Source: an uncultured Bacillota bacterium
GTDB lineage: Bacteria; Bacillota; DTU025; MWDF01
Length of the DNA: 64,000 bases
NCBI GenBank assembly: GCA_963823655.1
Contig: CAWGMK010000013.1
Span: 320,001-384,000 of the forward strand
Reading direction: 5' to 3'
Each line of letters opens with the position of its first letter. Within the stretch, counting starts at the first letter, position 1. Made by a program: the position numbers and the translations under genes. This document shows positions 9,285-41,320 of the stretch, piece by piece. Below the pieces are notes generated by a model, which saw only the letters and a list, made by a program, of their open reading frames with translations, was not told the DNA's origin and searched no databases.

Positions 9285-9313
9285 TTGCCCGCATTACGAT
9301 AATTTGTTAAAAT
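9285..9313 (+). promoter_or_regulatory. Putative sigmaA promoter of the cytochrome c gene
   Basis: TTGCCC-N17-TAAAAT with an extended -10 TG, followed by an AAAGGAGG RBS. Confidence 0.55.
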
Positions 9314-9348
9314 ACTTGTGATTTATTATACGAAAGGAGGAACCAACA

Positions 9349-9769
9349 TTGAAGAAGATTCTAGTAGTAGCTTTCGTACTAGCACTCGTCGCGGTGGTTT
9401 CCCTTGCAGTCTACGCAGCGGTACCCACACTAACCGTACCAGGCGTGAATGCCAAGGACGATCTGCCCAAAGGTTGCGTGGATTGCCACGTCAAGTCCGG
9501 TAGCACCGATATCGACGATCCTGGCCGGCATGAAGAAGCTCATCGCCGCAGGCACGCATCCCAAGGCCCCGGATACCATGGTAGACGAGCTCAAGGACTG
9601 CTACGGCTGCCACAAGGCGGGAGCCGCGGCCGGAACCGTAGGTACTGTAGTCCATGTATCGCACTTCACCGGCGCCAACAACGCATTCGTGAAGGCTTAC
9701 AGCGGCAACTGCACCTGGTGCCACAGCGTCGACCTCACAAAGGGTGTCGTCGGAGTCAAGGGCAAGTAA
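9349..9769 (+). CDS. Secreted triheme c-type cytochrome, ~139 aa (frameshift near 9505)
   Basis: Signal peptide and CVDCH in ORF 9349; CYGCH and CTWCH in overlapping ORF 9449..9769; three additional His residues. Confidence 0.8.
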
Positions 9770-9787
9770 CTAGCGTCGCATAAAGAT

Positions 9788-9811
9788 TGGAGGGCGGTTT
9801 TCCGCCCTCCA
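9788..9811. terminator. Intrinsic terminator hairpin between convergent genes
   Basis: TGGAGGGCGG-TTTT-CCGCCCTCCA followed by TTTTCTTT. Confidence 0.8.
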
Positions 9812-9846
9812 TTTTCTTTGTACTTAAGTAGTTGTGCGGCCTCCCT

Positions 9847-12088
9847 CTACGGTGTGACGGGAAGGAATATCGCAACGACGCCCACTATGATTCCCAGCAC
9901 GCCCAGTATCAGGCCGGTTATCCCAAGGCCCTTGATCTTCTTCATCTCCGCTTGCATGCTCTGATTCTGCTCCGCAAGCTGGCCCTCAAGGGACTTTATC
10001 TGGCTGTTGAGCTTGGCTTCCCTCTCCTGGGCCTGTATGTCTATGTCGTCCTTCTGGTCGATTGACGCCTTCTCCAGGTCCTTGAGCTTGGCATCGGTCT
10101 TCACTTGCATATCGGCAAGCTTCGCCTCAAGAGTCTCCTGCTTTATCTTCAGCCTGTTAAGATCGTCGCTCACTAACACCAGGAGCTTCGTCGTCGACTC
10201 GAGGTTGGATTTGAGAACATCAACCGAAGTCTCCAGCCTGGTAAGCCTGGACTCGATTGCCGCCACCTTCTCTTTAAGCGACGTTATGCTCGCGTTGGCG
10301 GTATCCATCGCCACCCTTAAGCCTGCTATCGAGAGGCCCAGCTCCGAATCTGCGTCCTGCAGCTCGATGGCGTTTCTTACTATCATAGCCTTGGAATCGG
10401 AGTCCACCTGGCTTATGGTGGCCTTCAGCTTCGCGATTTCGGACGTGAGCTTAGCATCCGAGTCAGCCCTTGTAGCCTTTTCCGCGTCGAGCAGCTGGAG
10501 CGCATTCTGGTATGATGTGCCCCCTTCCGCCGACAGGGCCGCCTTGAGTGCCGCCGCTTCCGTCTTTCTCTCCTGCTTCTCGTTCTCAAGTGCTAGCTGC
10601 AGGCCTGCCGCCGCCTTCTCTATATCGGCGCCAAGCACTTTGTTCAGCATTTCAAGCCTAGTCGCGGTAAGGACATCGGCATCGGCCCTGAACCTCGCCT
10701 CATCGCTTATCAGACCCTTTAGCGCCTCCACCGCCGATGCCAAATTCCTATCATTTTCTGCATCAGTTGAAGCCAGGTTCTTATCGTTTTCTGCGTCGGT
10801 TGATGCAAGCATCGCTGACAGGGAATCAAGCTTAGCCGACAGAGAATCAAGCTTTACTTCCAAAGCCTTCCTGCTGCTGCTCTCGGTCTCGATATAGGCA
10901 GAGAGGTTGGTGACGGCCTTGTCGATATCCTGCCCTAACGCGGCCTTTATCGCTTCAATCTCCCTGTCCATCGCGGCCAATTTGCTGTCAGTTTCGGCCA
11001 GCGCGGACTTCAGCCCGACTATTGAGGCATCGAGCTTCGCCGCCTTGCCATCGCCTTCTAGTTTGATTGCGTCCATCAGCTTCTGTGCGGCCGTCGCCTC
11101 ATCTGCCATAGCCTTGTTGAGCTCGGCAACCTGCACCTGCAGCGATTTGCCCCAGCTTTCCTCTACAGACTTTGAGGTCGGCATCGAAGCCGGCGGCCAT
11201 CGCGGCATGCTCCGCGCTCGCCCATTCCCTTAGGGACGCGACTGCTGATGCGAGATCCTCGGCCGTCTCGTCCTCCAGGGTTCCGACCCTGGTCTCGAGC
11301 GCCTTCCTGCTTGCAATCTCAGCTTCCAGGTAGTTAGACAGCTCGGTCACTGATTTGTCTATATCGTCGGACATAACCGCTTTAAGGGTTTCAAGCTCGA
11401 CCGACAGGCCGCTTATTACGGCATCAGTCTTGGCCTGCGCGCTCTCCAGCCCCTTAAGGGCTAAGCCTGTCTCTGCCTTGCTCTCATCGCCCTGCTTCTT
11501 CAATGAGTCGATGAGCTTCCTCTCGGCTGCCGCCTCTTCCTGCATGGCGACCATGAGAGCGGCTAACCCTTTCTCGGTGGTCTCAAGCGACTTGTCCATT
11601 GCGACTATACGTTCCGCTTGATCCTCCAGGTCATCCAGGATGCCTGCCGCTTCGGCCTTCCGCTCCTGCCTTTCGGCTGTGAGGGATTTGCCGGCCTCAA
11701 GCTCGGCCTTCTCGAGTTCTTTCACCCTTGTGTCGAGGGCGGCGAGCAGGGGCACCATCTCGCCTCTTAGCTCATTTGCCACCTCGCGCAGCACTCCCAT
11801 ATCCTCTTCGGTTGCCGTAACGGTCCCCTTTTCAAGGTCAGTAAGCATCTTTGATACTACGAATGCCAGCAGGTACCTGCTCACGGGCTCATCGCCCTTG
11901 AACGAGCCGTCATTGTAGACGCCAAGGTACCCCTTCTCTACCAGGCTCATAACCGCTTCATATGCCCAGTGGTCTTTGGTTATGTCGGTGACTACTGGCG
12001 CGGCAGCCGCCCCCAGCGACATGATAATAGCCATCATGATGCTTATGACCGCCACAATGCGGCCCTTTGATGAAAACATTTCAGGCAC
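9847..12088 (-). CDS. SLH domain + long coiled coil + C-terminal hydrophobic anchor protein (Omp-alpha-like; frameshift near 11172)
   Basis: Signal peptide, SLH motif DITKDHWAYEAV...FKGDEPVSRY, ~620 aa of heptad-rich Ala/Glu/Lys/Leu sequence, terminal GITGLILGVLGIIVGVVAIFL. Confidence 0.8.
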
Positions 12089-12097
12089 CTCCGGTCT

Positions 12098-14076
12098 CTA
12101 CTTTATTATCGCCATAAGGCCGTCGTTTTGAACCGGCAGCTGCTTTCCTGCCGCGTCGAAGGCCTTTACGTTCTCCATTCTTATTGTCATCCTGCCCGGT
12201 CCCGCAATTTTGAAATCTATGCTGGCTAACACCCCTGTCGGCTCCCCGCCGGGAAGGAATGAGCAGCTTATACCCCTGATGGCTTTGCCTTCGACCTTGC
12301 CTTGCACAAGTCCCGGGGAAGTGCCGTCGGGCAGTAGCATAAGAGCGCCTGCTGCAACCGGTTTGCGTCCAAGAAGGGCCAATGCCTCGCCCTCCCAGAC
12401 TATGTCGAACTCGATCTTGGCGACTCCTGAGAGCCTTAGGGCCGATACCTTCGCCTCTATGAAGCCGTCGCTGAAGGCGCCCAGCTCCAAGGATATGGAA
12501 CGCGTGGGGGAAGGCACCGATGCCGCCGACTGCGCCGCGACCTGCTTCACATTCGAGGCGGCCGCCTTCGCCTTGAACTGCACCGCCTGGGATCCGGGAA
12601 GTGGGGAAATGAACCAGGCGGATTCGTAGCTCATGCCCGGCAGGAAGTGCCCCAGCTGCCTTCCTTGTGAGTCTCCGGGAAGAAGCCTTGCTCCCGTCAG
12701 CTCCAAGGGAGGCCTCTGTCCAGTAGGCCGCCGAGTCGCCCAGGTTGCTTATCTGGGCTGTGACGGGATAGGATTCTTTCAGCGCTCCAGCTGCGTCAAG
12801 TTTTATCTCCGGGATTATCAACCTTAACGAAAGCCTTGGGGGTGAAAGTACCTCTACGGATCTGGTAATGGAATTGCCCTCAGCATTTGAGGATTCCGCT
12901 TTTAACTTCAGCTGAAGCGCGCCGAACGTCTTGCCGTCGGTCTTCAGCCTCCATGAAAGCTGGGTAATTGCACCCTGCTTCATATCCCCGACTGAGCGTA
13001 CAAGCTCCGATCCTGCCATGGGTTCAAGGCCTTTTGGCAGCTCAAGTGACACTTTAACATCGAGCGCCGGCCCTTTGCCCGTGTTTTGAATATATGCCAC
13101 AACGGTAAATGAGCTCTCCTGCCCCTCCTGAGGCGCCGCCACTTCCGCAGGCGCCGCAAGGCCCAGCGACAGGTTTCCGGGCGCCACTACTATGCCGCCC
13201 AGGCCGTAATAAGTCACAAGCGTTACTTGTGAGCCGGGCTGCAACACATAGCCGTCCCAGTACATCGCGGCCGCCGAGTCCAGGTCGAATTCGCCCTCTC
13301 TTGTGAAATCGCGTCCCGGCACCAAGCCTAACGTCCCACAGGCTGTCGGCGAAAGCTCCCCAGTTGCTGAAGATTACGGAACCCGGAGGAGTAAGCTCTT
13401 TGCCGATAAGCGTTGCCTGAGAAGTGACCGAAGGCTCTGCAAGGGAGTCGAAGGCCTGCCAGAAGTCTGGAAGCGTGCCGCCCGTAAAGTTCCTGTCCGA
13501 GACTATGGTGCTCTCGCCGGCCCTAAGTGGTGCGCCGTCATTCTTGCCCAGCATCGTATCGAGCATTAGCCTCAGCCCGACTGCTGCGGGCACAATTCCC
13601 TCGTTTTTCAGGGTGTAGGCGATCCTGACAGTGTCATTGTAGCCGGTCATGTGGTTCCTGGCGAATGATAGGTCCTGCGTGGCCCTTATATTCCCTAGCA
13701 TGTAGGAAGTCGTAATAGAGCTGCCCTTGGCGGCGGGCGCCACGGCTACTGAGCCGTACTTGCCCCCCGCTCCGGCCCTCTTCGAAGCTTTGCCGCCGAA
13801 TACCCAGTCCTGGCCGTCGATCCTGACAGTCGTATAGCTTGTCCAGGGCACCGGCCGCCCATATATCAGCGGCAGGTTGTCGTCATTCGGGTTTGCGGGG
13901 TCCCCCCCGGTAGTCTCGACGCCGAACCTGCCGTTCTCGCTCGTTTCAGCATTGACTATTATCTTTATGAACTCATTCGAAATCACAACAGACGAAGCGG
14001 CGCTCGCGGATATCGCGACTGCTCCCAGAAGGAGCGCCACCGCCGCTGTAAGTGCCAGGGTCCTTGCTCTGCTCAT
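12098..14076 (-). CDS. Secreted multidomain beta protein: N-terminal beta domain, two Ig-like domains, C-terminal cohesin-like domain (two frameshifts)
   Basis: Joined from ORFs 13054..14076, 12081..13325 and 12098..12706. Ig motifs VAYIQNTG and TAQISNLG; cohesin-like pattern IEFDIVW...GVLASIDFK...VKAFDAAG. Confidence 0.65.
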
Positions 14077-14090
14077 CGGGCATGCCCCTC

Positions 14091-14888
14091 CTAATCCAAG
14101 AATGAAGCACTGATAAAGCGCTGTTCGGTCCTGGCTACCGGCTGCATCCTGAACGACACTTCGATTACAACCTTGTAAGCCCTCTCGGCGCTTTTAAATG
14201 TCCAGTATCTTAATATCGTAAGTTCGGCGTTCTTCTTGAGCCACTCGTCATCCGGGCCGGATAGTATGCCTGTGGAGAGTATCTTGCCGTCAGTGCCTAC
14301 CTTAACTTCCACGACAACATCGCCCTCGCTCGCAGAGCTCTGCGACTCTTTGGGGTAGGCTACCTCCCGTTTGGAGGCCACCATCGCCTCTCCGGTGGGA
14401 TCGTCCCCGGGGAATGCCGGCCTTACCGGCTCGGGCTCCTGCTGAGGTTCCGGTTGGGAGGTTGCGGGGACTTCCGCGGCATTAGTGGCTTCAACCGGTT
14501 CGGTCTGCACCGCGACGCTGCCCGTTGGCGAAGTCAGCAGCTCATCGGCCTCTTGAGTTATTGGCTCCTTCACTACGGGCTTTATGCTGATGATCGGCTT
14601 TGTGCTCGGTTGAACGGCAGTCTGCGGGGGCTTTACCGTCTCCGGTTTCTTGACTTCGGCCTCCGTCACCGGCGGTTTGGGCTCCTCCTGCGGCAGCGCA
14701 TCCTGCTGCGTCGCATCATCCGGCTCGCCCTTCACCTGCTGCAGCTCGGCCAGCTCGACGACACCCGAGCCTTCAAGCGGCATAAGTTCCACGACGGGTG
14801 CCGGCTGCCATGGTATCAGCAGCAGCAGCGCATGGATCCCCAGTGAGACCAATATTGCCAGTATGTTGTTCGCGGCGCTCTTTTGCAT
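14091..14888 (-). CDS. tonB: TonB/TolA-family energy transducer
   Basis: N-terminal TM helix with SLGIH (SxxxH), Pro/Glu/Lys-rich linker, C-terminal YP...EGDVVVEVKVGTDG...WTF domain. Confidence 0.85.
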   Translation of the reverse strand: MQKSAANNILAILVSLGIHALLLLIPWQPAPVVELMPLEGSGVVELAELQQVKGEPDDATQQDALPQEEPKPPVTEAEVKKPETVKPPQTAVQPSTKPIISIKPVVKEPITQEADELLTSPTGSVAVQTEPVEATNAAEVPATSQPEPQQEPEPVRPAFPGDDPTGEAMVASKREVAYPKESQSSASEGDVVVEVKVGTDGKILSTGILSGPDDEWLKKNAELTILRYWTFKSAERAYKVVIEVSFRMQPVARTEQRFISASFLD

Positions 14889-15313
14889 CAGTTGACGCCT
14901 CCAGGCTCCCCTGCCGGTGTCCTTTCGACTGCAAGCGCAAGGTGGACCCCTCCGCCCAGCCTCACAGCATCTACTATGGCTATTAGCTGCTCATACGTTA
15001 CGGATTTATCCGCTTTGATGGCGAAAAGCTCCTCTGCGTCCCTCTCTAACGCCCCTTTGACCTTATCCGCAATTCCTGTGATGTCGGTTGCCTCTTCGCC
15101 GAAGAAGATGCCCCCTTCGGAATCGATCGAGACCATGACGATATCGGAGGCGAGCTCTTTTGGCGTCGCAGCCCTGGGAAGCTCGAGCGGCATTCCTGTG
15201 GTGTTCGTCCTAAACGAGGTGAAGATCATGAAGAAGAAGATCAGGTAGCACATCATATCCACAAGGGGTATGAGGTCCACCCTGGGCTTCCTCTTTCTCC
15301 TTGCGATATTCAT
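14888..15313 (-). CDS. exbD: ExbD/TolR biopolymer transport protein
   Basis: DLIPLVDMM TM segment with the essential Asp, LELPRA and IKADKSV motifs. Confidence 0.92.
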   Translation of the reverse strand: MNIARRKRKPRVDLIPLVDMMCYLIFFFMIFTSFRTNTTGMPLELPRAATPKELASDIVMVSIDSEGGIFFGEEATDITGIADKVKGALERDAEELFAIKADKSVTYEQLIAIVDAVRLGGGVHLALAVERTPAGEPGGVN

Positions 15314-15930
15314 CAGGATTCCCTCCCGCCGTCTTGTATGATGTCCACGATCTCGTGTTCTGAGTTGATCATCATTGCGACATGCCTGTCAATCTGGGCC
15401 GTCAGGAAGCTGTGCCCCAAAACGGTGGGGGCTGCCACTATAAGGCCGGCAGCGGTGGTGATGAGCGCTTCCGCTATTCCGCCTGCCAGCTGTGATGGCG
15501 CCGTTATGCCTCCTAGGGCATTCAGCACGTTGAAGCTTCTGATCATGCCGGTTACAGTGCCCAGCAGCCCCAGTAGAGGGGCGATGGTCGCCGTGGTCTC
15601 AAGCACGAGCATGTTCTTCTCCATGTTGTAGACTTCGTTCTGCGCGGTCCTTTCGAGGATCTCCTTCAGCGCGTCCTTATCGACGTCGTGCGCCTGCAGC
15701 GCCACCCTTGCCATGGCGGCGACCGGGCCTCTGAAGCTTCGAAGCATAGTCAGAGCCTCGAGGCTTCCTCCTTTGAGGTATGAGTTGCGCAAAGTCTTCA
15801 GGACTTTCTCCGGATCGCTGGGCAATATGCCAAGCTGTATTACTTTGATGATAATCACTGCCAGTGAGAATACGGAGCTGAGTAGTATCGGGTACATAAC
15901 CCAGCCGCCCATGCGAAATAGCTCAACCAT
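15313..15930 (-). CDS. exbB: ExbB/TolQ/MotA proton channel protein
   Basis: APLLGLLGTVTGMI and GIAEALITTAAGL motifs. Confidence 0.92.
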   Translation of the reverse strand: MVELFRMGGWVMYPILLSSVFSLAVIIIKVIQLGILPSDPEKVLKTLRNSYLKGGSLEALTMLRSFRGPVAAMARVALQAHDVDKDALKEILERTAQNEVYNMEKNMLVLETTATIAPLLGLLGTVTGMIRSFNVLNALGGITAPSQLAGGIAEALITTAAGLIVAAPTVLGHSFLTAQIDRHVAMMINSEHEIVDIIQDGGRES

Positions 15931-15956: not shown

Positions 15957-17756
15957 CTAGTCGACCCTCTCAAATAAACTAAACGTCGCTTCTTCCCCTT
16001 TAGTCACGTTTCGGGGGCCGTTAACACCAGAAATACTGTTCTTTTCCCAAGCCTTTAACATCGTATTGGCATGTTGCAGCGCTTCTTTACTAACAGAGCC
16101 TGAGAGCATCCTTGCTATCTCCTGCGACCTTGCATCCTCCTCAAGGCTAACTGCTGAGACGAAGGAGCGCTCCCCGTCATCGGATTTTACTATCAGCATG
16201 TGCCTGTTTGCGGCGGCTGCGATCTGGGCGATGTGAGTAACTGCAAGCGCCTGGGCCCCCGCCGAAACCTCTTTCAGCTTGGCTGCGACGTGGTTTGCGG
16301 CGGCACCGCCCACGCCCTGGTCCACCTCATCGAACACCATCACGGTGTCGTTTTCCTGATGCTTCATTCCGGCGACCTTGAATGCCAGCATGAAGCGTGA
16401 AAGCTCGCCTCCGGAGGCCACTTTGGCAAGTGGCTTGGGATCCTCCCCCACATTGGCCGAGAAAAGGAATTCTACCTTCTCCAGGCCCGATAAGGAGGCC
16501 CATTTGCCCTCGCCCGCATCGAAACCTTCCGATCCGGTTCTAGCTGATAACGAGGCTACGAATCTCGCCTTGGGCATCATAAGCTCTGTAAGCTGCCTTT
16601 CGACCAGTCCCGACAGGTCTTGCGAGGCTTTCTGCCTTGCCCCGCTCAACTGGTCCATCAGGCTTAGCATTATTGACCTTTTCAATTCCAGGTCCATCCT
16701 TGCAGAATCGGTGCGGATTTCGAGCTCTCTTAGCTCCGCCGCCTCCGCCTTGCATCTCTGGCAGAAAGCGCCCAGCTCATCGGCCTCAAGCCCGAACTTC
16801 CTCTTCATTTTGCCTATGTCGGCGAGCCTTCCTTCCACCTCGGCGGCCCTGGCGGGGTCCAGGTCCAGTGAATCGCGAATCCTGCGAGCAGCCTCCGCCG
16901 CATCGGTTAGGGCATCCACTGCAGCCGCAAGAGGATCAAGGGCGTCTTTCACATCTAAGCCCAACCTGCCTGCCGAAATGATGCCATCAAGCGCTGACCT
17001 GGCCAAATCAAGGGCAGAATGCTCGTCGGATCCCGTTTCGTAAAGCGCGGAGTATGCCAAAGAGAGCGCCTCGAACAGCTTGCCGGAGTTAGCGAGCACC
17101 TTGGCCTCGGCCAGGAGCTCAACCTCCTCGCCGGGTTTGACGGATGCGTCATCCAGTTCTTTTATCTGATACTCCAGAAAGTCCAGCCTCGACTGCCGGT
17201 CCTTGGCCTTAGCCATAAGTGAGTCCAGCCCGTCTGCCGCCTGCCTCCATGACTTGAATGCCTCAGAAGAGCCTTTCAAGAAACCTTTGCCCTCTTCGGT
17301 GAGGAAAGTGTCAACTGCGGTAAGCTGAGCCGCGGGCCTTGTCATGCCCAGCCCGTCGTGCTGCCCGAAGATGTCGATTAGGCTTTCGGCGACTTGGGCG
17401 AGCTCGCCTGCGCTCACCAGCGTCCCGTCAATCCTGGCCCTCGATTTGCCGTTTTTCTGGACCTCGCGGGAAAGAATCACTATGCCCTGGGCATCTACAT
17501 CCAGCTCCAGGGCCGCAAGGGCGGCTTTGGCCCTTTCGTTATATGTTATGTCGAAAGCCGCCTCTACTGCGGCGGCTTCGGTGCCCCTTTTGACATTTTG
17601 CGCATCGGCCCTGCCCCCGGCGATGAGCGCCAGGCAGTCGACTATGAGCGACTTGCCGGCCCCCGTCTCGCCCGTCAGCACATTCAGGCCTTTTGCGAAT
17701 TCAAGCTCTATGTCGTCAATCAGGGCGAAATCCTTGACTTTCAGCGACTTGAGCAT
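15957..17756 (-). CDS. recN: DNA repair protein RecN
   Basis: TGETGAGKS, ASGGELSR, FDEVD and THIAQIAA motifs. Confidence 0.96.
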   Translation of the reverse strand: MLKSLKVKDFALIDDIELEFAKGLNVLTGETGAGKSLIVDCLALIAGGRADAQNVKRGTEAAAVEAAFDITYNERAKAALAALELDVDAQGIVILSREVQKNGKSRARIDGTLVSAGELAQVAESLIDIFGQHDGLGMTRPAAQLTAVDTFLTEEGKGFLKGSSEAFKSWRQAADGLDSLMAKAKDRQSRLDFLEYQIKELDDASVKPGEEVELLAEAKVLANSGKLFEALSLAYSALYETGSDEHSALDLARSALDGIISAGRLGLDVKDALDPLAAAVDALTDAAEAARRIRDSLDLDPARAAEVEGRLADIGKMKRKFGLEADELGAFCQRCKAEAAELRELEIRTDSARMDLELKRSIMLSLMDQLSGARQKASQDLSGLVERQLTELMMPKARFVASLSARTGSEGFDAGEGKWASLSGLEKVEFLFSANVGEDPKPLAKVASGGELSRFMLAFKVAGMKHQENDTVMVFDEVDQGVGGAAANHVAAKLKEVSAGAQALAVTHIAQIAAAANRHMLIVKSDDGERSFVSAVSLEEDARSQEIARMLSGSVSKEALQHANTMLKAWEKNSISGVNGPRNVTKGEEATFSLFERVD

Positions 17757-17783
17757 GCGCACCTCCTGGTGCGAAGATTATTT

Positions 17784-30230: not shown

Positions 30231-33200
30231 CTAGAGCACGGGGCCCTTGATTTCGACTATACCATCCTTGAGTCCTGTTGTCTGCCCCGGCTTGATTATC
30301 CACGCTGTAATCACGATGATGATCTCCTGGTCCTTGGTATCCGTGCCGCGCTTTGTGAACAGCTCCTTGATAAGAGGGATGTCGCCGAGTATCGGCACCT
30401 TGGTTATGGTCTCGATCTCCTCCTGGCTGAACAGGCCGCCGATTATCGCCGATTTGCCGTTCTTGACCGTGACTATAGTCTCAAGCTCCCTGGTCCTTAT
30501 CTGAGGGTAGTTCTGCGGCGTCCAGCCGATGATAGAGCTTATTATCGGCTTCACTTCTGCCGTTATGCTGCCGTCGTAGCTGACCTTAGGCAGTATGGTA
30601 AGCTCGATGCCGGCGTTGATGTACTCAACTGTGTTGACTACCTGTCCTTGATCGACGTTCTGCACAATGACTGGTATCCTGTCGCCGATCAGCATCCTGC
30701 CTGCCTTGCCGTCCACAGTATAGGTGTGCTGCTTGGATATCAGCTTGGCCTTGCCCTCATTGGCGAGAGCGGCAATCTTATTGTCGAAGTCCAGGCTCAC
30801 TGTTGCCAGCTGGGACAGCGTATTGTAGCCGAATACCAGCTTGTTGATCGTCCAATCGATGCCCAACCTCTTGGTAGCGTCACCCGACAGCTCGTAGAGG
30901 CTTGCTTCGAAGAACACCTGGGCGAGTTCCTGGTCCAGCTGATCGATGATTTCGACCAATTGAGCCTGCTCGCTGGCCTTGGCCGTGACGATTAGCGAGG
31001 AGGTCCTGGTATCGATCGAGACCTTGCCTGTGGTCACTTCGCCCAGTGCCGCCTTGAGGTCCGCGGGCTCGGCGTGGTTGAGCTTGTATACTCTTGTGAC
31101 CGATGCGTCTGCGTCCACCGATACCTGCGTTACGCTCTTTACATCAAGGGTGGCAATCACTTCTGCCGCCAGCTTCTGAATCTCGGGAACGGCCTTGATG
31201 ATAAGAGTTCCGCTCCTGTCGTCAGGCAACATCGAGCTTGCGGGAAGCAGTATGGTAAGCGCTGAGCTTATCTCAGTCGGAGAGGCATTGTTAAGCTTGT
31301 AGGTCTTGTATTCGGCAGAGCTCCGCCGAGACGTCCTCGGGCGACTTGATGTCGATGTCCAGCTTGGATATTACCTCTTCGATGAGTGCCAGCTCGCTTT
31401 CGGTGCCGTACACTATCATGCTGTTCGTTCTCTCAGCCACCTGAATTTTGGCAGAGGACGCTACCAGCTTCACCGGCGCTTCCATATCTTTTGCGCTGGC
31501 GTACTTGAGCTGGAAGAAGCCCAACCTGACAGGATCGCTAAGTAGAACTGCCGCTTGAGCGACCGGAACGTCCAAGGCCGAGATTATGGTCATAGCCTGG
31601 GATTTTAGCTCCGGTGTGACTATCAGCATAACCTTATTGGTGCGCTCGTTGATGGAGATCTTCGAAGCGGGAAGCAGTACTGACAGCGAGGCCCTTACAT
31701 CGGCAGCACTGGCGTTTGTAAGCTGTACGACTTCAAGGGTCTCTCTCACAGCCGCTGCCACGGCCCCTCTTTCAATAGGAGCTACATCAAGCTTGGCTAT
31801 GAGGCTTTCAATCATCTTGAGCTCCATGGAAGTCCCATATGCCGTTATGCTTGAAGTCGGGTCGGCCGCCTGGATCTTGGCTTCACCAGCTACCACTTTG
31901 ACGGAAGCTTCGATGTCAGAAGGCTTTACATTATATAGCTTGTAGAAGCCCATCGACACCGTCTCGGTAGTCTGGGCGACTTCTCCGTCGAGCCTTATGT
32001 CCAGCTCGGCGATGATCGCCATTGCCTGTGAGAACTCCTCGTCCGTGACGTTCATTATTATCTTGTTGGTCCTGGCGTCTACGTTGATCTTGGCGCCAGA
32101 TATCACGGCTTCAAGGGCCTTGCCTACTTCTACGGCGGGGGCGTACTTCAGCTGTACTATCTGCAGAGCCTCGACTCCGGTCGCCAAGGCGACTACTGGC
32201 TGCACTTTTGGTGCAACTTCGACGTCCAGGTTGCCGATTATGTCCAGGGCTACTGCCTTGCCTGCAGGAGTCACCATGACGATGACCTTGTTGGTGCGCT
32301 CGTCGATGTTGACGTTGGCGGCGCCCAGCACCCCGTCCAGGACTCTCTTCACGTCCGCTGCGACGGCGTATTTCAGCTGTACCATTTCGAGAGTAGGCTC
32401 GATAGTCGCAACCGCAGTGGTGGCGACGGGCACGTCGAGGGCGCTGATGATGCTCATGGCAAGCTGCTTCTTCGCCGGTGTTACGATCATCAGTACCTTA
32501 TTGCTGCGATCGTCTACGCTTACCTTGCCCTGTCCAAGGGCTGCGTCCAGCGCCGGTTTCACGTCAGCAACTTTAGCGAACTTAAGCTCTACTACCTCAA
32601 GGTTTTCAACCTCGACCGGAGCTACCGCTGTATCTATCCTTACATCCAGTTCATTGATGACGGCCATAGCAAGCAGCTTTTCCTCCGGGGTGACCTTCAA
32701 AAGCAGCTTGTTGGTCCTCTGGTCTATTGATATGCTCGACGGCGCAAGTACTGCGGCAAGTGCCTTTTGTACGTCGGCGGCCTGAGCGTACTTGAGCTGC
32801 ACTACTTCAAGCGAGCTTATGGCTGGCTTGACGGATACTGAAGCCATCTCTATGTCCAGGTTCTGTATGATCTGGGCTGCTAGGGCTCTCTCATCAGGAG
32901 TGCCCAGTATGATTACCTTGTTGGTGCGCTCGTCGATGTTGACCTTGTCTGGGCCTAGAACACCGTCTAATACCTTCTTGGCGTCAGCGGCGTTGGCGTA
33001 TGTTAGGTTCATCACCTCAAGGCTGGGAACCACTGCAATAACGGCCGGCTGGTCCACCTTTACATCGATTGCGCCGATTATCTCCATAGCCATCAGCATC
33101 TCAGCCGGTGTTACCTTAAGCAGGACCTTATTTGTCCTCTCATCAATAGTCACATTCTCGGCGGGAAGCACTGATGCCAATGCCTTCTGTACGTCGGCGG

Positions 33201-34650
33201 CCATTGCGTGCTTGAGCTCAACGACCTCCATGGACACTGCCGGTTGTATTGCTGCAGCGTTCTTCACTGAGAGCGCCTCTTCGTCGAGCTTCTTGAGAGC
33301 CTCAGCAATTAGCGCATGGTCGGCATCTGTGCCGTAGGCTACAAGGCTGTTGTTGCTTTCGATCACCTGCAGCTTGGCTCCGGATGCGACAAGCCTCACG
33401 ACTGCTTCGATATCCTGGGCTTTGGCGTGCACCGGGCTGTAATAGCCGAGCCTTAGGATAGGAGCTGCCACGGACGCAACAGCAGCTACATCTGCGACTT
33501 TGACGTCCAGCTCCTTTATTAGGGCCATTGCCTCGGCGCTTTTTGCGGCGTCGACGAGCATCACTATCTTGTTTGTGCGCTCATCTATCGCGATCTTATT
33601 TGCGGGCAGGACGACGGTCATGGCTTCCGCCACATCCGCGACTTTCGCATATAGAAGAGTCACTACTTCAAGCTTCTCCTGGACAGTAGCCACGGCGGCT
33701 GATTTCGGTGTAGCGGCCTCAATGTTCTTCACAAGGTCGCTTACCCTGGTGTATTCCTCAGGAGTCGCTTTGATGATTAGCGTATTGCTCTTTGCGTCCG
33801 CCTGTATCCTATCGGCGGGGATTATTAGTGAAGCTACAGCCTTTACTTCGGCTGCGGCAGCGTTAGTCAGTTGTATGACGCGGATCTCCACCGGTTGAGT
33901 AGTGACTGATTCAGCTTTCTTTACGATGTCAAGTTTCTCAATGATGCTCCTGGCAGCCTTTACGTCAGTCAGCTTGCCGCCGGCGAGTATCGCATTGAGC
34001 CTTGTATCAACCGCAAGCGACGCCTTCAGCAGCTTGGATACTGCGTCAAATACGCCCTGTGCCTCTGCGTTCGAAAGCTGGATTATATCGATTACTTCCT
34101 CTTCGGAGACGGTCATCTTGGTTACAGGCAAAGGCGCATCTACCTTGGCGAGGAACGCCTTGGCGAGCGCGATATCCGCCTGATTGCCCCTTATGAGCAG
34201 CGTGCCGGACTTGTCGTCTGGCTGGGCCGCTATTCCGGGGATGGCGAATGATAGCTTGGTCGCGGCATCAGTTGCGGAGATGTTCAACAGCTCTACTTTC
34301 TCCACTACTGCCTTGTCCATAAGCTTGCTGACAGTCCCCTTGGGGCCTACCATAATCGTTCCGTTCATATATATGTACTCAAGGTCTGACACGGAGCAGA
34401 TTATATCGAGTGCCTCTTCAACGGGTACGTTTGTCAGCTTGACCGTAATTTTGCCCGATACCGCCGGGCTTACTACTATATTGGATCCGCCTACTTGTGC
34501 GAGGACCCTGAATACTTCAGCTAGCTCCGCAAATTTCAAATCAAGGCTTACCTTGGCGGGCGAGCTCGCTGCGAATGAGCGCACGCCCAGCGTTAGCATC
34601 GCAAGTACCAGGGTTAGCGCAAATATCGCCCTAATCTTACTTGGCTTCAA
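30231..34650 (-). CDS. pilQ: Giant PilQ-like secretin, ~1470 aa, N0 plus 16 N-domain repeats (frameshift near 31315)
   Basis: Signal peptide, N0 (VSLDLKFAEL...VSGKITVKL), repeated LKYAxAxDV...IDERTNK...LD units, secretin domain (IGDRIPV, KVPILGDIPLI). The frames join as ...SAEYKTYKLNNASPTEI. Confidence 0.9.
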
Positions 34651-35231
34651 TTGGACTCACCCCCCAAGACGAATTCCTTCTGGAACCCTTTATATGATAG
34701 TGTAAGTTTGCTTTCATTAATCTTAGTGACTACAATGTCTCCAACTAGTATGTCTCCTGGCCTTGCGCTGTATGTGGTCTGTTCGACTTCAATAATCGCG
34801 TATATCTTGTTGCTAGCCCTGATGATACCCGCATACCTTATGTTGGGCCATTCAGGCTCTGGCGGCAGGGGCTCCGGCATCAGATTATCGAAAGGATCCC
34901 ATCTTCCTATTGTCAGTGCAGATAGCGCTTGATCCTTCCTGTCTCCTGATGTGTCCTCGGCATCCTTGAGGCTGCTGTTGAGAGTATCGCCGATCTTCTG
35001 CTGCAGCTTATATTTGGCCTCGATCAACAGCGAGTCGTCCGAAGCCGGTTTTGCATATGGCAGAATATACCTAACAAAACCGACTGAAAGTGCTGCTAGG
35101 ATAATTATTAGCAGTACGACGATCAGTATTATCTGATTCCTGAGGTTTTTCCGGGCTCTTTCGGCAGGCGTCAGAGGCATCTTGCCGCGAGGCAGCTCCG
35201 GGCGCGGACTTACGCTATTGGGCACTGCCAT
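34647..35231 (-). CDS. PilP-like pilus assembly protein
   Basis: TM helix, GRWDPF motif, beta domain YAGII...AIIE...PGD; sits between pilO and the secretin. Confidence 0.7.
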   Translation of the reverse strand: MAVPNSVSPRPELPRGKMPLTPAERARKNLRNQIILIVVLLIIILAALSVGFVRYILPYAKPASDDSLLIEAKYKLQQKIGDTLNSSLKDAEDTSGDRKDQALSALTIGRWDPFDNLMPEPLPPEPEWPNIRYAGIIRASNKIYAIIEVEQTTYSARPGDILVGDIVVTKINESKLTLSYKGFQKEFVLGGESN

Positions 35232-35823
35232 TCTGAGCACCTCCCTTCGGACGAATGAACAGGCTTAAGTTGCATATCGAGTGAAGCTTGTCAATTTGCT
35301 TTGTAGTACCATCTTCAGCGATCTTCGTTTCGGCCTGTAAGTCGAAGCTGTAGCTATTGACGGCAAGTTTCCTGTTCAGAATCTCTAATGAAATCATAGA
35401 AAGCTTTGATACCAGCATAGCTTCCTGTGATTTCGACATATGTGCCAACATCTAGGAATCTGCCAAGGGGTTTTGCATTATTGAACCTGACTGAACCGAG
35501 CTCAACTCCGGCCCTCTTCGCCATTGACTCAAGATCCCGAATGAAGAATGCTTGTTTCTCCTCGTCGGCGATGAACGTTTCCTCATTTCTGAGTTGCTCC
35601 AAAGCCAGTCTTTAAGGAAGCATCTGCTTCATCAGCCTTATTCAGCTTATTCAAATCGGCTCTAAGCTGCATTTCTGAAGTCTTGAGCTCTTCGCGCGCC
35701 AGTTCGAGCCTTTCTTGCTGAGGCGCAAAAACGTACACATATAACGCCACCAAGCCCGCCAAGACTAGAAAGACCCCTAAGTATCTTAAGTGCTCTGATA
35801 TCTCTGCTACCTAGCTTTGCCAA
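35215..35823 (-). CDS. pilO: PilO-like protein (about three frameshifts)
   Basis: Reconstructed TM GVFLVLAGLVALYVYVFAPQ, coiled coil, FIRDLESMAKRAGVEL and ITGSYAGIKAF. Confidence 0.7.
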
Positions 35824-35828
35824 ACCCC

Positions 35829-36383
35829 TCACCTCCTCCTTTCAAGGGCTCCGGTGATAACGAAGTCCTCATAGGAAGTAGCGGTTTCTCTATCCTCTGT
35901 TGTTGTTACTGAGCTGATCTTTATATCCTTATAGGCATTTGATGATTCAAGCGAGAATACAGATCTGGCTACTGACTGATAGCTGTATGTCACTCCATTA
36001 ATTGTAATTGTTTCCTGAGGGTTGACATTGGCACTGGTGAGCCAGACGTCAGCAGGAACTTTTGCCTTTAACTCTGCCAAAAACATGGCAGGACTCAAGT
36101 GCGGATTCTCTAAAGCAATTACCTCGTCATACAACTTCTTAATTTCCAGAGTCCTTGCTTCCACGTTTGCAACTGCCTGAACATCCTTCTTAATCATTGC
36201 TATGGATGTCTTGACTTCCTCTGTCCTCTCTTGAGTCTTGATTATTGCCAGCCGCCTGTAGGAATAGAGCCCTGAGAGGCAGGCAATGAGCACAACACCT
36301 AGGATTATCAGTGCAAGCGCTATAGGTCCCAGCGATTGCCTTATTTTTGGTCTAGCGGGAAGAAGGTTGATGTTGTTCCTCAT
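35829..36383 (-). CDS. pilN: PilN
   Basis: INLLP motif, TM helix, VPADVWLTS. Confidence 0.9.
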   Translation of the reverse strand: MRNNINLLPARPKIRQSLGPIALALIILGVVLIACLSGLYSYRRLAIIKTQERTEEVKTSIAMIKKDVQAVANVEARTLEIKKLYDEVIALENPHLSPAMFLAELKAKVPADVWLTSANVNPQETITINGVTYSYQSVARSVFSLESSNAYKDIKISSVTTTEDRETATSYEDFVITGALERRR

Positions 36384-37508
36384 TCCTCCACCACCTCCCT
36401 AAGTGCCAGCCCTACAGCCACTGACATTACAGGGGACATCTTTTCTACATCTAGCCCGTCTACCATTGTAGAAGAGACCTTTATAAGTTTATAGGGATTG
36501 CCTAAGCCTACGGGAAGCCCTGTTACATTGCTTAATAGTTCTCCAAATCCCTTAAGTTTAGAGCCCCCTCCTGCAAGTACTATCTCTTTCACAGCCAAGT
36601 TTTCGACTTTGCTTTGTAGTTGAGCGTCATGGTATGTGATGCTTCTCTTGCATTCTAGGCACAGCCCGTGAGCTACATCATAGATACCCTCAAGTAGCGC
36701 TCTCCTCTTTGGGCTTTGCTCCGATATATACTCTTCTTCGGCAGAAACCACTTCAGCTTCGGCAATTTTCAGTGCCTCAGCTTCATCTGCTTCTAATTGC
36801 ATTGTCTTCATGACCACTTCAGTAAAGTGATTACCGCCGATTTGCACAATTCTTGTCATCCTGAGATTTTCTCCATTGCAGATGACAAGATCCGTCGTGC
36901 CGCCCCCGATGTCAATGTATGCAGTGCTGCCGGTCTCATCTGAACCACTTAATCCATAAGCCCTCATCATGCAGAAAGGCTGGATATCTATTGCTATCGG
37001 ATTTAGGCCCGCAAGCTCAAGTGCCGCAGCGAAGCTCTCAACTTTACTTTTGAGCGCCGCAACTAAGCATAACTTCTACGTCCGCAGTTGCATCCTGAAG
37101 GAGCAATGTCGGATCAGGCATGACTACATCAATTACTGCTTCTTCAGCCGGGAATGGCAGATACTTGTCCGCTTCCCACTTGATTGCTTCCTTTAACTCG
37201 TCATACGGCATGTGAGGGAATACGACGGGGCGAACGATTACGTCCTGCCCTGCAATCGCACATGATACATCTCTGCTTCTGAAACCTGCTTCCCGCCACA
37301 TCTTCCTGATTACATCTGCTACTGCTGCTGTATCGATGACCGAACCTTCTCTTACACCTTCAAAAGGAGTTTTCGCAGAAGCAATGCCTACCAATTCGAT
37401 ATCGCCATGCAAATTCGCAACCTCAGCGATTTTTATCGAGGTAGTGCCTATGTCAACACCAATTGCTGTCGAACCTTTTCTAATGAATGGTTTTCGGGTT
37501 GGGCTCAA
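36380..37508 (-). CDS. pilM: PilM (frameshifted)
   Basis: GVDIGTTSIK, YLPFP, IDIGGGTT, LAGGGS and AVGLALR motifs. Confidence 0.9.
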
Positions 37509-37554
37509 GCAGCTCACCTCCGAATTTCTAGGAATTAACTATAACTGATACATT

Positions 37555-37581
37555 ATTCTACCCACATATGCTTTCACCTGC
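37555..37581 (-). promoter_or_regulatory. sigmaH-like promoter upstream of pilM
   Basis: GCAGGT-N17-GAAT, an imperfect match to AGGA-N17/18-GAAT. Confidence 0.35.
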
Positions 37582-38359
37582 TAATGTGGGAAAATTATCG
37601 CACTTATTGATATATTCGAAACAATAATTGCAGCTACTGCAAGGTACGGGCCAAATGGTACAGGTTGTCCTTTGCTCGCTTTGCCCAGCTTAATAAGTAT
37701 AAATGTCCCAATTAGTCCGAGTATAGAGCCTAAAAGCAAAACAATGACCGTTTGATACCATCCCAAGTAGGCGCCTACCGCTGCGATATACTTGATGTCA
37801 CCTCCGCCCATTTTTCCGTTGGAAATTTCGGCAAGTATAAGAAGAAAACCCCCACATGATACTGCACCGAGAATTGCATTCAGGAGTAATTTTACCCCTG
37901 GATCAGCCCAGATATAAAGGCTAAAGGGTTGATGAATGGAATTCCTAAAAGGTGAGGCTAAGATAAAAATAGACATAAGAGGAATCGTTATTATATCGGG
38001 TATCATTTGTGTTCTAAGTCAGTAAGCGCGATTATTAATGATGCCGACATGAAAATATAAAGAAGCGCCATCTCCAAACCCATTCCATATTTGTAATAAG
38101 CGATCAAGGCAAATAGCGCTGAAGCAATCTCAACCAAAGGATACTGGATGCTAATTTTAACCTCGCAGTATCTGCATCTTCCTTTAAGCATCAGCCAGCT
38201 GAAAACTGGTATAAGGTCTCGGGGAGCTAAGACTGTTTTGCACTTCGGACATATGGACCTTTCACCCTTGAGATCCATATCTCCAGGAAGACGGTAAATT
38301 AGAACGTTGTAGAAACTGCCAAGCAGGACTCCCAGAATAACAAGAAAAATATACATCAT
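37581..38359 (-). CDS. pilD: Prepilin peptidase PilD (frameshift near 38005)
   Basis: GSFYNVLIYRLP, CPKC and CRYC, TDLE/IPD, MGGGDIK and PFGPYL motifs. Confidence 0.93.
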
Positions 38360-38501
38360 ATATGAAGGTTTACCCCTCTAATTAATCGCAGAGTAATTCC
38401 CGCTCTGCGTTTATTCCCCCTAACACTCATAAGGATTATCTAAAAACCATAAATCCTAAAATCCATGTATAAATACCAACAATAAAACTACTCCCATTAA
38501 T

Positions 38502-38542
38502 AAAAACACACCTGAGGAAACCTTGGCTTCCTCAGGTGTGTT
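38502..38542 (-). terminator. Intrinsic terminator after the major pilin
   Basis: 15-bp stem AACACACCTGAGGAA/TTCCTCAGGTGTGTT ending in a T-run on the minus strand. Confidence 0.85.
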
Positions 38543-38549
38543 AACAATA

Positions 38550-38896
38550 TTAGTGCACGCTGCAGTCAACTAATCCTGTAGTAGCAGAAATTGATAAAGT
38601 ACCGGTAGTTGAGCAAAGTATAGCTGCATCGAGATACTTTTGACCTGGGACAGCACCGTAGCCGGAGTTGTCGTCCATAAATCGGCAATAGCAGTTGGCC
38701 ACGCACCTTGATCTGCAAAGTAAATGCCCGCAGCAGAGTAAATAGTCCGACGATTTGCGTCGCAGGCAGCTTGTTGAGCTCTCGTTCTGAAGCTTTGATA
38801 AGCCGGTACTGCTATTGCGATTAGAATACCGATAATGATGATTACAATCATAAGTTCCATAATGGTAAAGCCTTTTTGATTCCTAGTCTTTCTCAT
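38550..38896 (-). CDS. pilA: Type IVa major pilin (frameshift near 38660)
   Basis: Class III signal QKG|FTIMELMIV with E5 and P22. The alternative frame restores a Cys-bracketed end KYLDAAILCSTTGTLSISATTGLVDCSVH*. Confidence 0.88.
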
Positions 38897-38934
38897 TTTC
38901 TGCACCTCCATATAAATTGGTATAACGCGAATAA

Positions 38935-40147
38935 TTACACGAAACTCGCCATTGAAAACATAGGCAACATTATCGATGCTACTAGTATTCCGGCAATTCC
39001 GCCTATGAACAGGATCATTATCGGTTCTATCATTGATGTCATTGCTTTTAGCGCTACATCGGTCTCTTCGTCGTAGAAGTCGGCCACCTTCTCTAACATT
39101 GTATCCAAAGCTCCGGTTTCTTCACCTATTGCCACCATATGTCCTAACATAGGCGGGAATATCGTAGACTGTTTCAGAGGTTTTCCTAAGCCTGATCCTT
39201 CTTTAACACCTAATCTTGCAGCTTCAATATCCTTCCTCATTACATAGTTGCCAGCTGTTTTCTCAAGCAACTCAAGTCCTTGAAGCATTGGGACTCCACT
39301 TTGCACCATCATTCCAAATGTTCTTGAGAACATCGCTGTACTACTCTTTCTAATAACTGGTCCAATGATAGGTACTCTGATTATTAGCCTATCAAACCAT
39401 GGCTTTAATGGCTTTGTTATTAGCCATCTAACACTAAAGAATAGAGCTACGAGTCACTATTGCAATAACATACCAATAATTCTGCATAAACTCCGCGGCT
39501 CCGAATACAACTTTCGTAATCGTCGGTAACTCAGTATCGAAGCTATCGAACATGTCTACAAAGGCCGGAAGCACAAAAGTCATTAATATTCCTACTGCAA
39601 TGATTGCCACTCCAACTAGGAAAAAGTGGATATGCCAAAGCCCCTTTACCTTGTTGATATTCTTATTGCTGTTCTCATAATATCTAGCTGTTCTATCAAG
39701 TACTCTATCAAGAGCTCCGGCAGTCTCACCAGCTTCTACCAAATTCGTAAACATGGGTGGGAATATTCCAGGATAGTTCCTAATAGCATTTGAAAACGAT
39801 TCTCCACCTTCTACTCTTTTCCTAACATCATTAATAACTGCAGCCAAATTTTTTCTTTCCACTTGGGCAGCAAGTACATTTAAGGCACTCACTAACGGAA
39901 GGCCTGCTTCAATCATTGTTGCCAACTGTCTGCTAAGAAGCGAAAGCTCTTTAACACTAACTTTCTTCGCCTTTGGACGTTATCAGAGCTGGAAGTGGCT
40001 GTTTTAGTTGCCTCCGCCTGAAGTAATGCTTATCGGGATATTGCCCTGCTGACGAAGTCGATCAACAACAATCTGCCTCGATTCAACATCCATAACGCCT
40101 TCAATGGAATGACCTTTGCTGTCTCTAGCCTTATAGGTGAACTGCAA
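38935..40147 (-). CDS. pilC: PilC/GspF platform protein (multiple frameshifts)
   Basis: QFTYKARD start, ATMIEAGLPL, AGETAGALD, LPTITK, IGEETGALD and IEP motifs. Confidence 0.92.
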
Positions 40148-40195
40148 TTTCTCACCTCCTGTTTGTTGGCAGATTGTCCCCTCAAGTACTTACTA

Positions 40196-40224
40196 ATTCT
40201 TCAAGTTACTCGAAATATCCTTCT
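40196..40224 (-). promoter_or_regulatory. sigmaH-like promoter upstream of pilC-pilA
   Basis: GAAGGATAT-N12-GAAGAAT matches RnAGGAwww-N11/12-RnnGAAT. Confidence 0.55.
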
Positions 40225-40236
40225 TTGTTAACTGTA

Positions 40237-41294: not shown

Positions 41295-41320
41295 TTCGCA
41301 CCTCCATGCCTATTTAAATG

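Follow-up and report, generated by a model that had tools for sequence, protein, structure and literature searches.

A conserved ExbB-ExbD-TonB gene block of diderm Bacillota as a candidate proton-driven envelope-tether module

The window analysed here, that is the whole 64,000-nucleotide (nt) stretch from position 320,001 to 384,000 of contig CAWGMK010000013.1 (assembly GCA_963823655.1, an uncultured Bacillota bacterium), carries on its minus strand five adjacent genes encoding an ExbB/ExbD-type motor, a TonB-like force transducer, a secreted all-beta protein and a long helical protein with a single SLH domain, referred to below as the tether. The order of these genes is conserved among relatives, the block lies in a genome yielding no match to the receptors of a Ton system, and the length of the tether follows that of the stalk of the outer-membrane protein OmpM. 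With somewhat better than even confidence, we predict that the block is a proton-driven envelope-tether module analogous to Tol-Pal.

Layout of the five-gene block

The features of the locus are as follows (lengths in amino acids, aa; values after the Pfam accessions are those of the match).

15313-15930, minus strand: exbB, encoding an ExbB/TolQ-type proton-channel subunit (205 aa; MotA_ExbB, PF01618, 1e-31)
14888-15313, minus strand: exbD, encoding an ExbD/TolR-type subunit (141 aa; ExbD, PF02472, 1.5e-24)
14091-14888, minus strand: tonB-like gene, encoding the force transducer (265 aa; TonB_C, PF03544, 1.9e-9)
12098-14076, minus strand: fourth gene, encoding the secreted beta protein (about 659 aa if read through; split by extra bases)
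9847-12079, minus strand: fifth gene, encoding the SLH/coiled-coil tether (about 743 aa if read through; SLH, PF00395, 1.3e-7, residues 34-71)
10739-10775, minus strand: in-frame length difference within the rod of the tether (11-residue repeat, one copy fewer in related strains)
9788-9811, no strand: two-way hairpin terminator (stem of 10 pairs, 8 being G-C; both strands carry a T-rich tail)
15957-17762: recN, upstream of the five-gene block

The original prediction, made from the letters alone, had described five tightly packed genes in this region that follow recN, end at a hairpin terminator and include no TonB-dependent receptor, TolB or Pal, and each of these points was borne out. Stop and start codons overlap by one base (TGATG) between exbB and exbD at 15313 and between exbD and the tonB-like gene at 14888; the remaining two intergenic gaps measure 14 and 18 nt, with a GGAGG-type site before each downstream gene. 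The hairpin sits between the 3' end of the tether gene and a convergent gene for a small exported cytochrome c (9349-9783, plus strand), itself split by an extra base at 9511. Beyond recN, argR and NAD kinase genes are also found upstream of the block. The position after recN had suggested a link to sporulation.

The motor is assigned at the family level. ExbB scores 85.5 bits against the NCBIfam tolQ model and 59.9 bits against exbB, both far under the equivalog cut-offs (221 for tolQ), and ExbD scores 54.2 bits against tolR (cut-off 127.3) and 43.3 bits against ExbD_1, both again under the cut-offs; TolQ/TolR equivalog membership thus failed for both proteins. ExbB is the sole MotA_ExbB match in the genome. 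The N-terminal membrane segment of ExbD holds an Asp (IPLVDMM), which we take to be the proton-relay residue. The TonB-like protein, likewise the sole TonB_C match in the genome, begins with a membrane helix containing Ser...His, continues with a linker rich in Pro, Glu and Lys, ends in the TonB C-terminal domain, and reaches 31.6 bits against NCBIfam tonB_Cterm (TIGR01352), over the cut-off of 27.1. No TolA match was obtained for this protein: at E ≤ 0.01, only TonB_C in Pfam and tonB_Cterm plus a TonB-like equivalog in NCBIfam were returned. Two motifs matter in E. coli TonB, SxxxH in the membrane helix and YPK...SSG..LD in the C-domain, and the consensus of 64 TonB homologues retains both. 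Together with the ExbD Asp, this makes the motor look intact, as judged from its residues.

As written, the window spreads the fourth gene over three frames and the fifth over two, owing to extra single bases at about 13324 and 12707 (fourth gene; both places read CTTGG, where relatives imply CTTG) and at about 11169 (fifth gene). Contigs of four public runs from three studies were compared over 9300-13400; the comparison used contigs only, which come from related strains, the runs sharing at most 0.25 of sampled words with the genome. Every covering contig is without exactly one base at each of these three places and at 9511 in the cytochrome gene (at 11169, in all three runs covering that place), and the only other single-base difference listed over this interval, at 9846, occurs in one contig of one run. 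Moreover, the three frames of the fourth gene align end to end with one 658-aa relative, and the frames of relatives are uninterrupted (653-677 aa for the beta protein, 216-946 aa for the tether), while in the same genome the OmpM gene has two frame breaks and pilus genes are split likewise. Because of the contigs lacking the extra bases, the unbroken relatives and the similarly broken OmpM and pilus genes, the three insertions in the fourth and fifth genes are most likely assembly errors, the genes being intact in nature. A difference of another kind is found at 10739-10775, where contigs of three runs replace 35 letters by 2, an in-frame net loss of 33 nt; here the rod has a tandem 11-residue repeat in the window (ASTDAENDKNL / ASTDAENDRNL) and one copy in the related strains.

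The beta protein comprises a signal peptide, a galactose-mutarotase-like supersandwich domain (N-domain), two immunoglobulin-like (Ig) domains of the CARDB/NEW3 type and a C-terminal cohesin domain. Pfam returned CARDB/NPCBM_assoc for the protein itself and Cohesin (PF00963, 3.6e-10) for a relative. The structure was modelled on a 70%-identical relative of 658 aa with a 13-row alignment (mean predicted local distance difference test, pLDDT, 82), and domain matches were taken from VIA-align across all representatives. Residues 25-307 gave a best Z of 17.4 (root-mean-square deviation 2.8 Å over 219 residues), many rows lying at Z 14-17, the matches being N-domains of GH94 phosphorylases and domains of cyclic-glucan synthase and aldose epimerases. 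The cohesin domain matched the non-cellulosomal structure 2xdh at Z 14.0 and cellulosomal cohesins at Z 13.2-13.8. Two other searches were set aside: Foldseek with the whole 658-aa model was uninformative, returning only multi-Ig look-alikes such as integrin legs (template modelling score ≤ 0.26), and in the ESM Atlas the clusters nearest to the N-domain were hypothetical proteins, the named leads (0.80-0.88) being too weak to use.

The tether starts with a signal peptide and one SLH domain, continues through a conserved neck helix into a long alpha-helical rod, and finishes in a hydrophobic helix at the C-terminus; it also matches coiled-coil families. It has no barrel on its own polypeptide and ends in this single helix. 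Tethers of relatives are single frames of 200-1433 aa in total, with a very variable rod. The neck helix, just after the SLH domain, matches a strict pattern in 55 of 75 tethers, the others showing close variants of it, and was found in none of 15 OmpM proteins. A 228-aa relative was modelled as an SLH domain followed by helices 88-159 and 165-227 (pLDDT 74), and a relative's rod of 520 residues contains 3.8% Gly+Pro and 1.2% aromatics. Heptad periodicity did not separate rod from barrel (6.4 vs 6.2); we infer that the rod is a coiled coil rather than simply a long helix. Each of the 79 tethers closes with an uncharged stretch, 13-33 residues long (median 18), after which come 0-4 further residues. 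In 74 of the 79, Lys/Arg are commoner before the terminal helix than after it, an unusual pattern that is the reverse of the usual inner-membrane stop-transfer anchor. The charge distribution and the length match to the OmpM stalk described below are indirect signs that the C-terminal helix may sit in the outer membrane. Since a CsaB-type pyruvyl transferase gene is present in the genome (G000:C10, 474208), a pyruvylated wall polymer is a plausible ligand of the SLH domain. In relatives, a second short gene with SLH, coiled-coil and hydrophobic-tail segments lies just upstream of exbB in locus L028 (11375-12064), and also in L074, L086, L091 and L097.

Host genome and distribution of the block

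The host genome amounts to 2.31 Mb in 13 contigs and is 97.1% complete. It has one Omp85/BamA and an OmpM-like gene of the SLH-stalk-barrel type (G000:C10:450100-453719), broken by the two frame shifts mentioned above. BamA, the OmpM-like gene and the CsaB-type pyruvyl transferase gene share an outer-membrane gene neighbourhood at G000:C10:441658-475020. Since BamA is present and relatives carry such names, the host belongs to the two-membraned Bacillota of the Limnochordia type. No match to LpxC, the single gene of its kind searched, was found in the genome despite the presence of BamA, and the outer membrane of this lineage may therefore be without classical lipopolysaccharide.

In line with the expectation of a system without barrel receptors, the receptor barrel (PF00593) and Plug (PF07715) profiles gave no match in this 97.1%-complete genome, in which control profiles did match. 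Likewise, OmpA/Pal (PF00691), TolB_N (PF04052) and dockerin (PF00404) each had 0 matches in the genome.

Gene order was then followed across relatives. With the N-terminal piece of the fourth protein as query, homologues were found in 24 of 41 relatives. Of 14 loci retrieved from as many genomes, 13 have the five genes in identical order; the exception, L029 (G035:C29, 8064-14705), encodes a giant 2214-aa protein with the N-domain and three C-terminal SLH domains, and has no adjacent motor. The best 80 of 438 loci in named metagenome-assembled genomes (MAGs) were also examined: ExbB and ExbD were found upstream in 70 of 70 loci with enough upstream DNA, TonB was recognisable by BLAST in 66 of those 70, and an SLH protein was located downstream in 73 of 73 loci with enough downstream DNA. 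The flanks, on the other hand, vary by family and include redox enzymes, an acetyltransferase, glutamate dehydrogenase and a methyltransferase; in family f4, three redox genes are inserted between recN and exbB. Conserved order combined with changing flanks indicates that the block moves as a unit. The conservation of gene order across Bacillota and the lack of receptor, Pal and TolB matches in the genome, both of which the original prediction had singled out for checking, were thus upheld.

The MAGs with related loci bear the labels Bacillota, Clostridia or Limnochordia, Candidatus Darwinibacter acetoxidans being among them, and sources name homologues of the fourth protein, and of this protein only, in Limnochorda pilosa and several Halanaerobiales. 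We take the block to be a conserved envelope module of two-membraned Bacillota, of the Limnochordia type and probably also of the Halanaerobiales.

A phylum sample of 201 genomes, each at least 85% complete, was screened for the fourth gene alone, a carrier being defined by a strong match (E ≤ 1e-60) in frames of about 640-750 aa; as these genomes are related to one another, the counts describe the sample and do not amount to a statistical test. The beta gene was present in 44 genomes, all of them among the 50 that are Omp85-positive, and had a strong match in none of the 151 Omp85-negative ones. Within the sample, the module is thus restricted to BamA-bearing genomes. Receptor barrels occurred in 14 of the 201 genomes, all Omp85-positive, and 35 of the 44 carriers had none. 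Six Omp85-positive genomes were without the beta gene, and five of these have 1-8 receptor barrels.

Weak matches to the beta gene appeared in nine Omp85-negative genomes, some of them to giant proteins (at least 2000 aa). The supersandwich N-domain also heads giant proteins of 2000-2600 aa in Omp85-negative genomes, and weak N-domain matches are present in G145 and G211 as well. As far as these sequences indicate, the N-domain is also used in surface proteins of single-membraned relatives.

Predicted TonB contact and the length of the rod

The original prediction had proposed modelling complexes of the TonB C-domain with its downstream partners. For the beta protein, this was done with the TonB C-domain (residues 160-273 of a relative) and the full-length fourth protein; the two input alignments had 63 and 64 rows. 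The complex scored 0.74, against 0.54 for the best of three controls. Of 157 solved complexes, 116 attain the score mark, as do 2 of 215 mismatched pairs, a calibration only roughly valid with custom alignments. Runs agree in at least 94% of contacts, and the partner has a pLDDT of at least 87. The predicted interface lies on the supersandwich domain (residues 74-75, 78-79, 97-100, 103, 239, 259, 261-263 and 266), not on the N-terminal strand, and includes the invariant beta-protein residues T79, W239, R259, E262 and D266. On the TonB side it includes P187 and K188, which besides Met1 are the sole invariant residues in the 64 homologues. The window's own proteins retain these interface residues. 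The model supports, short of demonstrating, binding of the TonB C-domain to the N-domain of the beta protein, in agreement with the contact that had been foreseen.

A rod that bridges the same gap as the stalk of OmpM should change in length together with it. Both proteins were therefore measured in 23 genomes from at least 15 families. Tether length correlates closely with the length of OmpM ahead of its barrel (Pearson 0.965, Spearman 0.945, slope 0.92, intercept -43, n = 23), while the correlation with the barrel part is not significant (r = 0.32). Within family f4 (6 genomes), the order of tether and OmpM lengths is fully monotonic. Sequence similarity between the two proteins is mostly limited: in 8 of 14 genomes it covers only about 80 aa (signal peptide and SLH domain, 34-41% identity), and in the other 6 a weaker match of 24-31% reaches 128-412 residues into the rod. 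Recent copying accordingly does not explain the length match. The rod appears to be a ruler matched to the OmpM stalk, which fits a tether from peptidoglycan to outer membrane.

TonB length, in contrast, does not scale with tether length (r = -0.21, n = 40). In genomes with the longest rods, TonB would hence be unlikely to extend as far as the outer membrane, which places its expected target close to the wall.

For these measurements, the stalk/barrel junction of OmpM was set by a two-segment change point, which overshoots in G023 and failed in G013, a genome not in the set. Two earlier rules were abandoned, a density rule that placed some junctions too early and a window rule that broke at Pro-rich stalk inserts. 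In only 1 of 10 further genomes was OmpM within 20 kb of BamA, the others being found through SLH matches; no clear OmpM was identified in G062, G083 and G090. Three genomes were left out of the set, as OmpM runs off the contig in G046 and is cut by the contig end in G004 and G011. The OmpM of the window's own genome measures about 1206 aa, a length taken from coordinates, and a search for the junction motif in it returned nothing.

A separate observation on envelope dimensions comes from a type IV pilus cluster elsewhere in the window (31291-43149, minus strand), with PilM split in two, PilN, and T2SS-F and T2SS-E ATPases. Part of it overlaps a region of lower G+C content (36001-40000, 0.41-0.46 vs about 0.57 elsewhere). 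The pilus secretin is a giant frame of 1119 aa with 11 Secretin_N repeats and STN/N0 domains. Across relatives, 11-21 Secretin_N repeats accompany long tethers and 0-4 short ones (Spearman 0.78, 18 genomes), which suggests a very wide periplasm in this order, and the relation is monotonic within the genus (5 genomes); within family f4 no relation is seen (rho 0.09, n = 7, some assemblies being fragmented). The repeat count as a second ruler is only a hint.

Relation to known systems and interpretation

Tol-Pal (tolQ-tolR-tolA-tolB-pal-cpoB) shares with the block its order of motor pair, TonB/TolA-type transducer, periplasmic all-beta adaptor and wall-binding, membrane-anchored protein. Moreover, the ExbB and ExbD proteins score somewhat better to TolQ/TolR than to ExbB/ExbD models, and the C-domain of the transducer is predicted to bind the adaptor. 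The setting is a diderm whose genome gave no TolB_N or OmpA/Pal match. Unlike in Tol-Pal, however, a supersandwich/Ig/cohesin protein takes the place of the TolB beta-propeller as adaptor, the wall is bound by an SLH coiled-coil rod where Tol-Pal has an OmpA-type lipoprotein, the transducer combines a Pro-rich linker of the TonB type with TonB_C and has no TolA match, and the predicted contact is made by a domain surface instead of an N-terminal strand. Between the two systems, the motor alone is homologous. With Ton systems the block shares the ExbB, ExbD and TonB families and their characteristic motifs, but no receptor barrel or Plug is present in this genome or in most carriers, and the motor is hard-wired to two non-barrel partners. 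As far as profile matches allow, membership fails in Ton for want of a receptor and in Tol-Pal for want of TolA, TolB and Pal.

The tether has its closest counterparts in SLH proteins of other diderms. Omp-alpha of Thermotoga is described in two sources as an SLH domain, a coiled-coil rod and a C-terminal hydrophobic segment (PMC10160955; Witwinowski preprint). In architecture, Omp-alpha of Thermotoga maritima and the tether are the same, each with a signal peptide, a single SLH domain, a long helical rod and a terminal hydrophobic helix. It differs in that the neighbour of the tether is a soluble multidomain protein instead of an Omp-beta barrel, that the tether gene is part of a motor operon, and that the genome additionally encodes a complete, barrel-bearing OmpM. 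OmpM/SlpA of diderm Terrabacteria likewise has an N-terminal SLH domain, and the length of its stalk co-varies with that of the rod; the tether, on the other hand, is without a barrel, resembles OmpM mostly in signal peptide and SLH domain, and has its own neck motif.

A 2025 survey of how TolA and TonB evolved states that Tol-Pal occurs in Gracilicutes alone and that Negativicutes are the only Firmicutes in which Ton systems were detected (PMC12204202); the words SLH, OmpM and Limnochordia do not occur in it. Full-text literature searches, whose scope left subscription journals and supplements aside, returned no description of the five-gene module.

In the proposed mechanism, an inner-membrane ExbB/ExbD proton motor would drive the TonB-like protein, the C-domain of which would dock on the glycan-binding-type N-domain of the periplasmic four-domain protein rather than on a barrel receptor. 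The four-domain beta protein would work together with the Omp-alpha-like rod, which would bind the wall via its SLH domain and reach the outer membrane via its C-terminal hydrophobic helix. At the level of the wall, the motor would thereby draw on the proton motive force so that tethers are engaged, released or repositioned during growth and division, a task that falls to Tol-Pal in Gracilicutes. What the N-domain binds, and the functional cycle as a whole, we infer. The original prediction had held that the motor remodels tethering between outer membrane and peptidoglycan instead of importing nutrients; conserved gene order, missing receptors, the contact model and the length match all speak for this, remodelling itself being the conjectural part.

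Several observations weigh against this interpretation. A Sec signal peptide combined with a C-terminal helix would normally leave the tether in the inner membrane and, should the two periplasmic gaps scale with each other, an anchor in that membrane would be compatible with the length match too. That match is poor in G002 (732 vs 507) and G021 (452 vs 294), and among hand-picked sister pairs from the first 14 genomes, tether and stalk length shift together, both up or both down, in 5 of 6, a result without significance by itself. The complex model passes exactly at the required minimum margin (+0.20), and the control at 0.54 was one that kept the TonB domain with a swapped partner, indicating that this domain is sticky in the model. 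In addition, residue conservation fed both the model and our reading of the interface, so the two are not independent. Nine of the 44 carriers have one receptor barrel each, and the module is not universal among these diderms, given the six Omp85-positive genomes without the beta gene. The sampled genomes are kin, and the BamA-bearing ones may form few clades. Finally, two of the five genes are out of frame in the window, and because the compared contigs come from related strains, this may reflect real decay private to this strain.

One alternative is that the block serves the capture or uptake of glycans, with the N-domain binding an external or periplasmic polysaccharide, the TonB-like protein energising a non-classical channel, for instance OmpM, and the tether holding the apparatus. 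The fold of the N-domain, shared with domains that handle carbohydrates in GH94 phosphorylases, glucan synthase and aldose epimerases (Z 15-17), would suit such a role, as would the classical function of TonB systems as importers. OmpM, too, is reported to be a nutrient channel besides a tether (PMC10628300). The block, however, has no linked gene for a sugar transporter or a glycoside hydrolase, its flanks being varied housekeeping genes, and no Plug or barrel partner was found in the genome. The module, moreover, occurs once per genome and tracks BamA rather than any catabolic trait, and the match between rod and OmpM lengths points to a structural role, so that we regard glycan uptake as unlikely.

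A second alternative places the rod in the inner membrane, where its C-terminal helix would join ExbB/ExbD in a MotB-like or stator-like link between inner membrane and wall that makes no contact with the outer membrane. This arrangement agrees with the standard type I inner-membrane design of a signal peptide plus a C-terminal hydrophobic helix, with the location of the motor in the same membrane, and with the lack of scaling of TonB with the rod, which requires a contact near the wall or the inner membrane. It sits badly with a rod that tracks the OmpM stalk, from wall to outer membrane, with a slope of 0.92, with positive charges on the exported side of 74 of 79 helices, and with the absence of the module from all 151 Omp85-negative genomes, in which such a link would be equally useful. 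The same architecture in Thermotoga Omp-alpha is furthermore described as a component of the toga (PMC10160955). An inner-membrane rod consequently seems improbable to us.

Far less credible is the idea of an ordinary Ton system with receptor genes that lie elsewhere or escaped the searches, beside which the last two genes would be unrelated neighbours. One receptor barrel in 9 of the 44 carriers and a genome that is 97% and not 100% complete leave it some room, but there is no barrel or Plug in the genome itself and none in 35 of 44 carriers, the five-gene order is strictly conserved across families while flanks change, and start and stop codons overlap or lie within 18 nt. A cellulosome-type anchoring scaffold, suggested by the C-terminal cohesin domain and by the name 'cellulosome anchor protein' used in sources, was rejected as scarcely tenable, since the genome has no dockerin match, the SLH domain is on a separate polypeptide and the protein is linked to a motor instead of glycoside hydrolases; this public name of the fourth protein is misleading.

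Returning to the envelope-tether module, a broader proposal can be put forward tentatively, at somewhat less than even confidence: that ExbB/ExbD-type periplasmic force transducers include, next to Ton and Tol, a third class, represented by the block. It would be the so far missing proton-powered outer-membrane tether machine of diderm Firmicutes, in which a TonB-like arm would grip a glycan-binding adaptor at the wall and mobilise Omp-alpha-like rods matched in length to OmpM. How energy is coupled to the outer membrane and to its attachment at division in diderm Terrabacteria, which reportedly do not have Tol-Pal, is a question tied to the diderm-to-monoderm transition. The module offers a concrete candidate: its motor is conserved, the residues of the predicted contact between motor and adaptor can be named, and the length of its rod predicts envelope spacing. 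The cultured carriers of the fourth protein named in sources, Limnochorda pilosa and Halanaerobiales, make experiments possible. If the module is ancestral, it bears on how Firmicutes held, and then lost, their outer membrane.

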